From NCBI GenBank assembly GCA_965246885.1, contig OZ251992.1, positions 832,001 through 896,000 on the forward strand: a stretch of 64,000 nucleotides of DNA, in the 5' to 3' direction. The DNA comes from Abditibacterium sp. Its GTDB lineage: Bacteria > Armatimonadota > Abditibacteriia > Abditibacteriales > Abditibacteriaceae. Position numbers: made by a program. Below, one piece after another: positions 18,001 through 21,000 of this stretch. Positions within the stretch are counted from its first letter, which is position 1. Every line of letters begins with the position of its first letter.

Positions 18001-21000
18001 GACGGAGGACGAGCCGAAGATGGGCGTGTTTTGCGGGATTTCGCGCACGGTCGAAACGGGAGCGCCCGCGCCCAAGTTGAACTCGCCCGACGCGTACACG
18101 CCGCCGCCCAAAGGACGCGGCTCGGCCTGCGCGTGTGCGGGAGTCGAGGGCGTGCTTTGCGCCGACGCGGTGTAGGTGGCTTTGGGGCGACGGCCAACGG
18201 GCGTGGAAAGCGGCACGCGCGGGGCGTAAACGCTGGGCGCTTGGTAAGTCAGTTGGCCCAAAGGCACAATCACGGTTTCGCCCGCGATAGGAGCGACGGC
18301 GTCGCCGTTGCGCGCACGGAGCGAGGCGGCGGAAACGTCGTTGCCTGCGGCGCGAAAGCGAAGGGCGATGGAGTCCCACGTGTCGCCTTGGCGCACGGTG
18401 TCGCTGACGGCACGGGAAAGCGAGCCACTGCCAGAGCGCACCTCGGAAAACGCGGGCGTTTGGACGACGGGCGCGGCGATGGGCGCTTGCCCTTCGCTTT
18501 CGCCGGGAACGCGCAGAAGCATCGAGCCAAGGGGCACCGCGTCCTCGTTCGTGAGACCGTTAGCGGTGCGCAGGGCGCCGGGGGTGACGCCGTATTTGGC
18601 CGCGACGCCCGCGAGCGTTTCTCCCGCCGTGACGGGGTAATACACGTCGGCGCGCGCGCTGAGCGAAAGCCAGAGCGCCCCGCCCGAAAGCAAGAAGAAA
18701 GATGAAACGGGTTTGCGCGCCCGCGACCGCGAAGTGAAAGCCATGATGTGCGAAGAACGACCGCCGACAAAAACTCTCTCCGAGACCGACGCGCCTTTAG
18801 CGGTCTGCCCCAAACGCGCCCCCTTTTGAGGCGCCGCGCCCGGCGCCCGGTCAAAGCGCCGCCAACATTTTAACCTAATCTTCACCCTGCAAGTGTGAAG
18901 GGCACCCGTTTTGCTTCGGACGCGCCGCTTTTCCCCCGTCAAAGCCACGTTTTGGCCAAACGCCGCCCGCTTGCGGCGCCTTAGCGGTTAAAACTACCGG
19001 CATGGCCCAGCATCCCGACCCCTGCGACATCTGCGCGCGCCTCGACCGCATCGCGGCGAGCGACTACCCGCCCTTCATCCACGAACTGCCAACCGGCTTT
19101 TTCGTGCTTGGCGACTCGCAGCAGTTCCCCGGCTACGCGCTTCTCTTGTCGAAGGCGCCCGTCGCCGAACTCGAAGAGTTACCCATGCCCGCGCGCATGG
19201 CGTTCCTGCGCGACGTGGCGCTCTGTTCCCAAGCCGTTGCCGACGTTGTGCGCCCGCACAAGATGAACGTCGAATCGCTCGGCAACGTCGTTCCGCACCT
19301 GCATTTCCACTTCTTCCCGCGCCAGCTATCCGAGCCGGAGCCGACCAAACCCGTCTGGACGCAGCAGCACGAAGGAGCGCCCTTTGACCCCGCCCGCGAT
19401 GGCGCGCTGGTCGCCCGCCTGCGGGCGCGGGTGGTAGAGTTGGCGCGCGCTTAGTCGCCGTCGTAGTGCTTGGTGGCGGCGGGGTCAGTCCACATGGCGT
19501 CGAACTGCCCCGCGCTCACGGTGAACTTCGCGTGCCCATCGGCGAACAAGAAACTCCCGCCCGTCGGGTGCCACTGTGCGTAGTAGAAAGGCGTGCCGGA
19601 GTAGCCGTAGGTCGCGCCGCCCGCGTCCATGTCGGGGCCAAACCAAGGCAGCATTTCGTCGCGCATGATGCGCGTTTCGGCGGCACGGGCGAACATCGAG
19701 TCTTTGACGGTGTGCGGCTGCACGGTGTTGGGGTTGGCGGGGTCGGAAAGGATGTTGTTTTGGCTCGATTCCCCGGCGACCACCGAATACGCGCCGCTCG
19801 TGAAGCGATACGAGGAGCCGTAGCACGCGGCGTAGGAGCTTTGCTTGGTGGCGTCGAGGGCGCAGTCGCCGTCCGACGCGATGGCTGGCCCGCCGATGTC
19901 GTTGGGGCACTTGAACACTTGCAGGCTCCGCGTGTAGGGCTGCAACTCCAACTCGACGCCCTTGTGGCCGGGGTTTCCAGAAGCGGGGACGGAGTTGTAA
20001 GCGTAAAATATCGGCCACGTTTCGTCGTTGTCTTGGACGTATTGCAGGGTGCCCAAGCCGATTTGCTTCATGTTCGACAGGCAGTTAACGTCGCGCGCCT
20101 TTTGGCGGGCGCGGGAGAACGCGGGGAACAGGATGGCCGCAAGAAGGGCGATGATGGCCACGACGACGAGGATTTCGAGCAGGGTAAAAGCGGAGCGGGT
20201 TCGCATGACAAAAGGGGCGCACCGCTTGCTTCGCCCGAAAACAGGGGAGAAGTGCCGGTTGCCCGTTCTGCCCGAAGCCGGAACGGTCAACGAGTGCTTC
20301 CCTCCGCTGGTATGATCCAGATCAGGTGATTGGGGTCGGCTCCAAGCCCTCTCAGCCGCATCTCCGATTGGTCGGATGGCGGCGCCCCCAGCAAACGCTG
20401 CGTTATTTGATTAGGTAACAGTGTGACGGCTTGCGGCGCCCGCCGGTTCGCTTCCTTAGTTCGCGCAAAGTGGCACGAGGCTTTGATACATCTCGCGCGC
20501 GGCATCGGCGGCGGGCAATTCCCATAAGCGCTCGCTGAACATTTCGATGGAAAAGGCGCCGTTGTAGCCATTGCTTTCCAAGGCGGCGATAATGGCGGGC
20601 AAATCGAGGTGCCCTTGGCCGGGAAGTTCGCGGTCGGCGTTGCAATCGGAGAGTTCGCCCGGTTTGTTCTTCATGTCGTCGAGGTGAACGTGTTTGATAA
20701 AGGGCACGGTTTGCGCGTTGATATGCTCGAACTTGGTGGCGGTGCAATGATAGTGCGCGGGGTCGAAGAGGACGCCGAAGTTGGCGGCGCCGCTCAAGCG
20801 GGCGATTTCAACGGCGCTTTGCAGGGTTTTGACGGCGCCCCAGTTGAACTCCAAGCACAGCGTCACGTTCATCGGCGCGACGGCGGCAGCGAGTTCGCCA
20901 AACAGTTCGCCATAGCGTTGGAGCGGGTTTTCGAGTTCGCCGATGGGTCGGTAGTCGGTGCCCATCACCATGTTTTGCGGCGCTCCGCCGCCCATTTCGG

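Follow-up and report, generated by a model that had tools for sequence, protein, structure and literature searches.

Thiamine uptake and salvage operons controlled by TPP riboswitches encode ThiT, PnuT-TPK, ThiBPQ, YkoEDC, CytX or TonB-dependent outer-membrane thiamine receptors. ComP is a DNA-binding minor pilin that functions in DNA uptake, and in the Sulfolobus bindosome proteins, a pilin signal is reportedly attached to a canonical binding protein of an ABC transporter. As a paralogous family, the DUF1559 / H-X9-DG proteins rank among the largest in a number of bacterial phyla. The archaeal bindosome is described as consisting of Sulfolobus sugar-binding proteins that carry class III (pilin-type) signal peptides and are assembled by the Bas system (PMC3047682); a 2023 study of essential genes in a planctomycete reports 68 DUF1559 / H-X9-DG paralogs, two of them essential, and describes the family as one of unknown function (PMC10632474). 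In the literature searched, no report links TPP or cobalamin riboswitches to DUF1559, H-X9-DG proteins, prepilins or pseudopilins.

Here, we analysed a window of 64,000 nucleotides from the genome of Abditibacterium, in which a TPP riboswitch stands in front of a gene for a pilin-like DUF1559 protein, a pairing that is conserved in the phylum Armatimonadota.

Riboswitch, leader and gene in the window

The TPP riboswitch aptamer (THI element; window 20282..20399, minus strand) matches RF00059 of Rfam with 69.0 bits, against a gathering score of 54.3 (E 1.8e-11), and is of full length: it spans positions 1-105 of the 105 in the model and contains the conserved cores CUGAGA and ACCUGAUCUGGAUCAUACCAGCG. 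No second RF00059 match occurs in the 3.56-Mb genome; the aptamer ends 75 nt before the ATG of the pilin-like gene, on the same strand. The stretch from the aptamer to the start codon, which makes up the expression platform (20207..20281, minus strand), contains no terminator detectable by a consensus scan; in the MFE fold of this leader, the AUG region is paired with upstream bases, with a stability no better than that of shuffled sequences (z -0.24). The putative control by TPP in the Abditibacterium copy probably involves occlusion of the start region. Among 58 orthologous leaders, a hairpin followed by a U-run was detected by a simple in-house script in 22, and clear terminators are present at three loci (L002, L003 and L007).

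The gene itself (19451..20206, minus strand) encodes a 251-aa prepilin-type DUF1559 / H-X9-DG protein, identified by its ORF and its Pfam and NCBIfam matches and placed by the tree in the TPP-linked clade A. The protein opens with a class III (prepilin) signal and an N-terminal hydrophobic helix (20126..20206, minus strand), recognised by Pfam as N_methyl (PF07963; 26.4 bits, residues 1-27) and by NCBIfam as the prepilin cleavage/methylation domain (TIGR02532; 24 bits, residues 5-26): the short basic leader MRTRSA, with A at -1, is followed by FTLLEILVVVAIIALLAAILFPAF (FTLLEILVV...), with Phe at +1 and Glu at +5. The SBP_bac_10/DUF1559 model (PF07596) matches residues 32-57 only, at 36.8 bits (cut-off 23.3), and the H-X9-DG motif (H213 ... 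D223-G224-H225; 19532..19570, minus strand) is captured by the H-X9-DG-CTERM model TIGR04294 (20.3 bits, cut-off 19; residues 212-228). D223, G224 and H225 are retained throughout the paralogs of the family; in alignment A1, where the Abditibacterium protein is 42-58% identical to the clade-A rows, D223 is invariant and H225 is conserved in at least 90%. Beyond the pilin and DUF1559 models, Pfam and NCBIfam yielded no match at E <= 0.01, and no canonical SBP-family domain was found with either. By sequence, the protein belongs to none of the ThiB/TbpA, ThiY, ThiT, PnuT and YkoF families, and in a protein atlas, nothing but generic DUF1559 clusters of Armatimonadota and Verrucomicrobiota came up. 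The next gene in Abditibacterium is a convergent HIT-family gene, and no thiamine gene follows.

The AlphaFold2 model of the 251-aa protein (pLDDT 89.1, pTM 0.86) predicts a helix spanning residues 9-59 and then strands. A Foldseek search against the PDB gave zero matches at E <= 0.001, and a PDB sequence search with the family profile matched the N-terminal pilin helix alone. The fold matches obtained with VIA-align are all type IV pilins and pseudopilins, at modest Z scores of 5.4 to 3.3, EpsG (Z 4.6) and ComP (Z 4.1) both ranking near the top; known thiamine-binding folds are not among these matches, an absence that does not exclude a relation.

Recurrence across Armatimonadota and thiamine salvage

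The survey comprised 151 Armatimonadota genomes, 103 of them with a TPP match, and all 126 matches were inspected; sites were counted from Rfam matches, a strict regular expression having recovered just 3, and the genome counts are not phylogenetically independent. An ORF with the pilin motif lies 45-240 nt after 58 of the 126 matches (58 genomes, 14 families), and two further matches precede a membrane-anchored form of the same DUF1559 domain; such recurrence throughout the phylum excludes chance. The earlier note had described the pairing of the window and had claimed its conservation from 14 of 30 top loci: the former was borne out, the 251-aa DUF1559 gene being preceded by a full-length aptamer, and the latter now stands at 16 of the 30 best-scoring loci, within the 58 of 126 overall. 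In 53 of the 58 genomes, the match before the pilin gene is the sole TPP match; a second TPP riboswitch, where present, controls only ThiM, ThiD, ThiE or a version of the domain anchored by three transmembrane (TM) helices. Among the named MAG records, a TPP riboswitch is found upstream in all six full-length closest relatives (44-53% identity); the 13 more distant ones that were scanned have none.

The thiamine-linked clade forms part of a salvage module, and its gene only seldom shares a genome with ThiC or ThiE. ThiC is encoded in 3 of the 58 TPP-pilin genomes, compared with 85 of the 93 others, and ThiE in 10 of 58 compared with 87 of 93, leaving 55 and 48 TPP-pilin genomes without the respective protein. 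By contrast, a strong match to thiamine pyrophosphokinase (TPK) is present in 56 of the 58 and in only 6 of the 93. The TPK gene is located directly downstream of the pilin gene, on the same strand, in 24 genomes of 9 families, with both the catalytic and the B1-binding domains of these downstream genes confirmed by Pfam; in 34 of the 58 genomes, there is no strong TPK match within 3 kb downstream on the same strand. The pilin-like gene forms an operon with TPK and is confined to genomes that do not make thiamine de novo. ThiC and a TPP-linked pilin occur together in three genomes: G022, G141 and, with a broken thiC, G109.

The claim that Abditibacterium does not make thiamine and yet needs it is also supported: ThiC, ThiE, ThiD and TPK were not found in its genome, whereas ThiL and transketolase are present. 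Abditibacterium and G135 are the two TPP-pilin genomes from which TPK is missing; to phosphorylate imported thiamine, the former has ThiL alone. Within the Abditibacteriaceae, all 13 sampled relatives have ThiC and ThiE and lack the TPP-linked pilin, which occurs in only two members of the family, Abditibacterium and G157, with no ThiC found in either. No inner-membrane transporter is co-located with the TPP-linked pilin gene, and none of the 37 next-gene ORFs scanned at thiamine loci is an ABC gene; ThiT was not found in the Abditibacterium genome. A Pnu carrier was considered as the inner-membrane step and rejected, given that such carriers are present in 18 of the 58 TPP-pilin genomes, never adjoin TPK, and in Abditibacterium are represented by a sole copy paired with a NadR-like AAA_28 kinase.

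Separate clades behind two vitamin riboswitches

The TPP-linked proteins form two pure clades, A (57 rows, support 99) and B (9 rows, support 78), and none of the 113 non-riboswitch paralogs falls inside either; locus L008, with a gene truncated by the start of the contig and a stop within the stretch, was left out of the alignments. The head of clade A displays a conserved set of aromatic, Arg, His and Glu residues exclusive to this subfamily, and R134, R179 and R182 are Arg residues specific to it; none of the clade-A-specific residues is found in clade B.

A parallel case involves cobalamin. The single cobalamin riboswitch of the Abditibacterium genome (contig OZ251992.1, 3011030-3011139, plus strand; 36.9 bits, cut-off 31.5) precedes a DUF1559 gene, a 280-aa pilin/DUF1559 ORF (locus L210:1751-2593), as the earlier note had stated, and the need for cobalamin that it had postulated is matched by a B12-binding protein encoded in the genome. 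Phylum-wide, a separate DUF1559 clade follows the cobalamin riboswitch at 38 of 71 inspected sites, and BtuF-like or BtuR genes are sometimes next after the DUF1559 gene; in the Abditibacteriaceae, TonB-dependent receptors are encoded behind 12 of 15 inspected cobalamin riboswitches. The FMN riboswitch, found in only 1 of 101 genomes, provided no third vitamin case.

The Abditibacterium genome contains 57 ORFs with the pilin motif, roughly 2% of its genes if about 3,000 are assumed, an estimate for a genome of this size, so that chance placement of such ORFs behind both riboswitches is unlikely. A vitamin role had been proposed for the pilin-like DUF1559 proteins as a “huge family”. What stands is that TPP and cobalamin riboswitches each control a clade or clades of their own, the thiamine-linked one within a salvage module; the extension to the family as a whole is not supported: only two TPP-linked and one or two cobalamin-linked clades are associated with riboswitches, and 55 of the 57 Abditibacterium paralogs have none.

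Proposed function and relation to known systems

We propose, with a probability of roughly two in three, that the element is a TPP-repressed thiamine-scavenging gene, the product of which is a thiamine capture or uptake protein, and we infer its ligand binding, location, polymerisation and transport step along the following lines. At a high cellular level of TPP, the aptamer would bind TPP and switch off expression of the downstream gene, at many of the orthologous loci putatively via transcription termination. The product would resemble a type IV pilin, with a prepilin signal and a membrane helix at its N-terminus and, after these, a head of pilin fold bearing the H-X9-DG motif, and the head would capture thiamine or thiamine phosphate outside the cytoplasmic membrane. 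The capture protein might be anchored in the membrane by its helix or might be a subunit of a short pilus or pseudopilus, and the captured vitamin would be handed to some inner-membrane carrier. In most of the genomes, the co-regulated TPK would then turn thiamine into TPP.

It is improbable, in our assessment, that the protein is instead a periplasmic or surface enzyme of thiamine salvage anchored by the pilin helix, for instance, a phosphatase acting on external TMP or TPP or a hydrolase recycling thiamine breakdown products. An enzyme would account for the regulation and for the association with auxotrophy just as well as a binding protein, and D59, D61, D103, E184, D223 and H225, all invariant or nearly so, could form a metal or catalytic site, with R134, R179 and R182 contacting phosphates. 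However, the same Asp/His/Glu set is retained family-wide, including the cobalamin-linked clade and the 112 unlinked paralogs, so that a structural role is more likely for it than one peculiar to the chemistry of thiamine. Moreover, the Pfam, NCBIfam and fold searches matched no enzyme family or fold, and the existence of a parallel cobalamin clade favours a generic activity common to both, such as capture, that varies in specificity.

An ordinary structural pilin or pseudopilin without vitamin specificity, belonging to a pilus that is made under vitamin starvation and serves adhesion, motility or contact with neighbouring vitamin producers, also strikes us as an unlikely explanation. It would agree with the prepilin signal, Glu+5, the predicted pilin fold and the presence of prepilin peptidase (two Peptidase_A24 matches in the Abditibacterium genome, 40.9 and 37.8 bits), as well as with the lack of a small-molecule-binding fold among the fold-search matches. 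Nevertheless, the thiamine- and cobalamin-linked clades are separate, each with its own head-domain residues, and the thiamine-linked gene is co-transcribed with TPK. Furthermore, two TPP-controlled copies have three ordinary transmembrane helices in place of the pilin signal, with neither the cleavage motif nor Glu+5, so that filament assembly is not required for those two. Finally, a functionless pairing, with the riboswitch serving another gene or being a relic, might be suggested by the fact that a convergent HIT-family gene, and no thiamine gene, follows in Abditibacterium, but is close to refuted by the comparative data and highly improbable, given that 58 genomes from 14 families show the pairing with the aptamer intact, that the proteins form orthologous clades, and that the pilin gene appears to be the regulated unit in the 34 genomes with no strong TPK match nearby.

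The TPP- and cobalamin-linked clades point to a class of vitamin-acquisition proteins absent from the current transporter catalogues. The module of TPP riboswitch, pilin and TPK marks thiamine auxotrophy in a mostly uncultured phylum and is thus relevant to the design of culture media and to modelling how vitamins are exchanged, and the proteins, being small and well predicted, are suited to binding and structure work. A broader and rather doubtful possibility is that DUF1559 / H-X9-DG proteins are the cargo-recognition subunits of an unrecognised uptake route based on a type IV pilus or pseudopilus, in which every paralog would be specialised for one nutrient, picked up outside the cell and carried to the periplasm, replacing TonB-dependent receptors or acting beside them. 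Were this so, the thiamine and cobalamin clades would provide the earliest examples of an identified cargo, and the tens to hundreds of copies in Planctomycetota, Verrucomicrobiota and Armatimonadota would be accounted for.

The locus shares with the known thiamine operons an OFF-type TPP riboswitch before a non-biosynthetic gene in thiamine auxotrophs and, in 24 genomes, TPK in the operon, but differs from them in that the regulated protein lies outside the known families, has a predicted type IV pilin fold, and is accompanied in the operon by no permease or ABC component. Like the bindosome (PMC3047682), it would feature solute-capture proteins that carry a type-IV-pilin-like signal and reach the cell surface through pilin-type machinery; unlike in the bindosome, a pilin-like H-X9-DG domain makes up the head, the host is a bacterium, and no ABC transporter adjoins the thiamine loci. 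ComP and the GspG/EpsG pseudopilins resemble the protein by fold-match rank, and ComP shares with it the notion that the head of a pilin can bind what is to be taken up, whereas here a small vitamin would be the cargo, the head has long insertions and roughly double the size, and polymerisation is putative. At the 38 of 71 cobalamin sites, a DUF1559 protein takes the position of BtuB, BtuF and surface B12-binding proteins under cobalamin riboswitches, although it is related to BtuB, BtuF or BtuG neither in sequence nor in fold. With the DUF1559 / SBP_bac_10 (PF07596) and TIGR04294 family, the protein shares matches to both models and the motif, and the genome has 57 pilin-motif paralogs. Because riboswitches name their ligand, the linked clades, the first members of the family found with a specific ligand clue, give DUF1559 its first specific and testable lead to function.

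A TPP riboswitch before a prepilin-type gene

Rfam detects a single family in the window, the TPP riboswitch. With 69.0 bits, the aptamer (20282-20399, minus strand) exceeds the gathering score of 54.3; the match spans the full model of 105 positions and retains both conserved cores, CUGAGA and ACCUGAUCUGGAUCAUACCAGCG. No other TPP match occurs in the genome, which comprises 3.56 Mb in two contigs (92.7% complete). The ATG of a prepilin-type DUF1559 gene (19451-20206, minus strand; 251 aa) lies 75 nt downstream. The pairing of a TPP riboswitch with a pilin-like gene, the starting claim of the earlier note, is real, and TPP-dependent regulation can be read from the canonical aptamer sequence. 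The N-terminus of the encoded protein reads MRTRSA/FTLLEILVVVAIIALLAAILFPAF. Pfam assigns N_methyl and SBP_bac_10/DUF1559 domains, with the DUF1559 match confined to residues 32-57, and NCBIfam recognizes a prepilin cleavage/methylation domain and an H-X9-DG C-terminal domain, the motif being H213-x9-D223-G224. The gene is solitary: a HIT-family gene follows in convergent orientation, and the upstream neighbor on the same strand encodes a xylose-isomerase-like TIM barrel.

Two other genes in the window deserve mention. A second DUF1559/prepilin-type paralog of 217 aa (22734-23387, minus strand) is located 2.5 kb from the TPP-controlled gene, with no Rfam match in its upstream region. A 195-aa ORF (16543-17130, plus strand) has a hydrophobic stretch at either end and a long middle part of Arg/Asp/Tyr repeats (RDRDYRDRDD...).

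Recurrence and orthology in Armatimonadota

An RNA-side search of 151 Armatimonadota genomes, in which every TPP match was fetched, yielded 126 matches in 103 genomes, 115 of them above Rfam's cut-off. At 58 of the 126 matches (57/115 above the cut-off and 1/11 below), the nearest downstream gene of the same strand begins 45-240 nt away and carries the pilin signature, and the mature parts of these TPP-linked pilins span 223-265 residues. The 58 TPP-pilin genomes represent 14 GTDB families; 53 of these genomes contain no further TPP match. The pairing recurs across the phylum, well beyond what the earlier note could establish. The other 68 matches are followed by ThiC (23), Thi4 (17), ThiG (10), ThiE (7), ThiM (3), ThiD (2), a CytX-like permease, a YkoF-like protein with ThiL, and RuvC (1 each), or by no family (3). 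The RuvC gene (L087:347-850, minus strand), on a short contig behind a high-scoring riboswitch (79.2 bits), is an odd pairing.

Two of the three no-family cases are second TPP riboswitches in TPP-pilin genomes of one genus and precede transmembrane (TM)-anchored DUF1559 forms of 216-221 aa (L151:867-1529, minus strand; L154:272-919, plus strand). These proteins have the same head domain, with the motifs CLSxxKQ, YxxDYDD and FADG, and three ordinary transmembrane helices in place of the prepilin signal; as these variants show, the DUF1559 domain need not assemble into filaments. Second riboswitches in TPP-pilin genomes control ThiE, ThiM, ThiD or a TM-anchored paralog and never directly precede ThiC, ThiG or Thi4; in G022, G141 and G109, thiC (broken in the last) lies farther down the operon that such a riboswitch controls.

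The protein-side scan, with one genome per species, identified 112 relatives. A TPP riboswitch lies 50-100 nt upstream of all six full-length closest relatives (44-53% identity; record titles Fimbriimonadaceae, Fimbriimonas or Armatimonadota MAGs), as opposed to none of the 13 more distant ones that were scanned; the gene of a seventh close relative is truncated by the start of its contig. The genome under study encodes 57 pilin-motif ORFs, 51 with an H-X9-DG-like end. We built a FastTree phylogeny of 179 proteins, comprising 58 TPP-linked proteins, the 6 named relatives, the 2 TM-anchored forms and 113 other paralogs (56 from the window's genome and 57 from other Armatimonadota loci). All riboswitch-linked proteins fall within two clades, and no unlinked protein lies inside either: clade A (57 rows, FastTree local support 99) includes the window protein, and clade B (9 rows, support 78) consists of families f15, f29 and f32 and the two TM forms. 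Judged by this phylogeny, the TPP-linked proteins are an orthologous group rather than random paralogs.

A simple custom script detected a terminator-like hairpin with a U-run, placed behind the aptamer and ahead of the start codon, in 22 of the 58 orthologous leaders; clear examples are L002, L003 and L007. This arrangement fits the usual OFF logic. No such terminator was found in the window leader; its AUG region can pair with upstream bases, in a fold not better than those of shuffles, and translational occlusion is the likely candidate mechanism for this copy.

Thiamine salvage in TPP-pilin genomes

ThiC and ThiE were not found in the window's genome, nor was there a real match to ThiD (only partial kinase matches of 35 and 28 bits) or to thiamine pyrophosphokinase (TPK; none by Pfam, and a best E of 0.25 in tblastn with six neighboring TPKs). 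Given these absences and the presence of ThiL (290.9 bits) and transketolase (359.9 bits), this bacterium needs TPP and cannot build thiamine, as the earlier note had held, and its sole TPP sensor controls a pilin-like gene. A B12-binding-domain protein is present as well. Among possible carriers, ThiT was not found, and the single Pnu-family protein (L281, G000:C1:1097036-1098171) has an AAA_28 NadR-like kinase encoded behind it, so that the pair probably serves the salvage of nicotinamide riboside rather than thiamine uptake. The phosphorylation of thiamine may be accounted for by TMP or TPP delivered by the TPP-pilin, by an unrecognized kinase or by a gene in the unassembled part of the genome.

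Gene content over the same 151 genomes separates the 58 TPP-pilin genomes from the 93 others, although these counts are not independent events; there are also within-family contrasts. ThiC is present in 3/58 (G022, G141 and, broken by stops, G109) vs 85/93, and ThiE (E <= 1e-15) in 10/58 vs 87/93. Conversely, a strong TPK match, defined as a score of at least 39 bits with almost full coverage of the catalytic-domain model (a threshold set once the data had been seen), occurs in 56/58, all except the window's genome and G135, vs 6/93. The many weak matches, limited to model positions of about 6-48 in ORFs of about 390 aa, belong to another family; across the phylum, ORFs of about 380-460 aa in many genomes that score 31-42 bits on these positions alone could be mistaken for TPK. 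In 24 genomes from 9 families, the pilin gene is immediately followed by a co-oriented TPK gene. Of the 37 next-gene ORFs scanned, 20 matched the Pfam domain TPK_catalytic, usually together with TPK_B1_binding, and 3 encode a second DUF1559 pilin.

Within family f1, that of the window, all 13 sampled relatives encode ThiC and ThiE, and none has TPK or a TPP-pilin. Only G157, of another genus and 77% complete, has an ortholog of the window protein among 20 members searched; it is in two contig pieces (75% and 67% identical) with a TPP riboswitch (67.7 bits) right upstream, and ThiC was not found in that assembly. In family f28, the five TPP-pilin genomes lack ThiC, and G053 and G121 carry TPP-ThiC instead. 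G109, which also carries a TPP-pilin-TPK operon, has a TPP riboswitch followed by thiM, thiE and thiC, the latter two broken by stop codons (G109:C10:72979-75764, L193 and beyond); the de novo pathway appears to be decaying at this locus. Taken together, these patterns show that the TPP-pilin gene is part of a salvage module in genomes without de novo synthesis.

Cobalamin-linked relatives and the proposed role

The cobalamin riboswitch reported in the earlier note (C1:3011030-3011139, 36.9 bits) also holds up: it is the only one in the window's genome and is followed by a 280-aa DUF1559 gene. Cobalamin riboswitches were matched in 147/151 genomes, and we inspected a non-random set of 71 sites: the 30 best, 20 low-scoring (17 in families with TPP-pilins), 15 in the family of the window, 5 further sites and the one of the window's genome. 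A pilin-motif ORF follows at 37 of the 71, and at one more site the DUF1559 protein carries a long extension at its N-terminus (38/71 in total); DUF1559 genes follow 19 of the 30 best-scoring sites. In the window's family, 12 of the 15 sites precede TonB-dependent receptors and 3 a DUF1559 gene. With 35 cobalamin-linked rows added to the tree, the cobalamin label needs only two changes and remains separate from the thiamine clades. The genes that follow cobalamin-linked pilins encode BtuF-like binding proteins (2), BtuR (1), further DUF1559 proteins and, at 8 loci (L212, L222, L230, L232, L245, L246, L248 and L254), a conserved secreted protein without a Pfam family, with a signal peptide, found in at least 4 families at 27-81% identity (blastp), which may be a partner of the DUF1559 protein. 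Because BtuF-like proteins follow at some loci, the DUF1559 protein does not simply replace a periplasmic binding protein, and a role earlier in uptake is favored. A third riboswitch case is unavailable, FMN riboswitches being almost absent (1/101 genomes). A ThiC-family radical-SAM gene (L227:1839-3152, plus strand) lies immediately behind a cobalamin riboswitch in G095, a genome with two ThiC matches; it may encode the benzimidazole synthase, a ThiC-like enzyme of B12 lower-ligand synthesis.

We modeled the window protein with AlphaFold2 on an alignment of 58 rows, in which the window protein and the 6 named relatives are joined by 7 clade-B genes and by 44 of the 50 other complete clade-A genes (the near-duplicates L085, L096, L103, L121, L167 and L174 were left out). 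The confident model (pLDDT 89.1, pTM 0.86) has an N-terminal helix of 50 residues and then a mixed head domain. Foldseek gave no match at E <= 0.001, and a fold search independent of Foldseek placed type IV pilins and pseudopilins at the top, with modest scores: PilA4 (Z 5.4), a type IVb pilin (4.9) and EpsG (4.6); no periplasmic-binding-protein fold was among the matches listed, although such lists do not exclude a relation. Residues conserved in all paralogs include C42, S44, N45, Q48, Y56, D59, D61, P65, Y91, P101, D103, Y129, E184, D223, G224 and H225. Residues specific to clade A (at least 80% within, at most 20% elsewhere) include Y70, H81, E85, Y125, S131, S132, Y133, R134, F135, S147, R179, R182, Y200, Y202, Y208 and W212; we infer only that this aromatic, acidic and arginine set matches what would be expected of a pocket for thiamine or thiamine phosphate.

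The vitamin role proposed in the earlier note is graded here by its parts: the link of TPP-pilins to thiamine salvage is strong, an uptake mechanism is a plausible proposal, and extension to the whole DUF1559 family is speculation. Under the uptake reading, the head, either anchored by its helix or polymerized, would bind thiamine or a thiamine phosphate on the outer side of the cytoplasmic membrane and feed the vitamin to a putative carrier. Less probably, the protein could be a salvage enzyme or an unspecific pilin induced by starvation; an accident of position, the least probable reading, stands against a riboswitch-gene pairing that is conserved and orthologous. In the open-access literature and bioRxiv searched, we found no report that connects DUF1559, H-X9-DG or prepilin-type proteins with a riboswitch for TPP or cobalamin. 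For capture by TPP-pilins as proposed here, the nearest concept known to us is the archaeal bindosome (PMC3047682).
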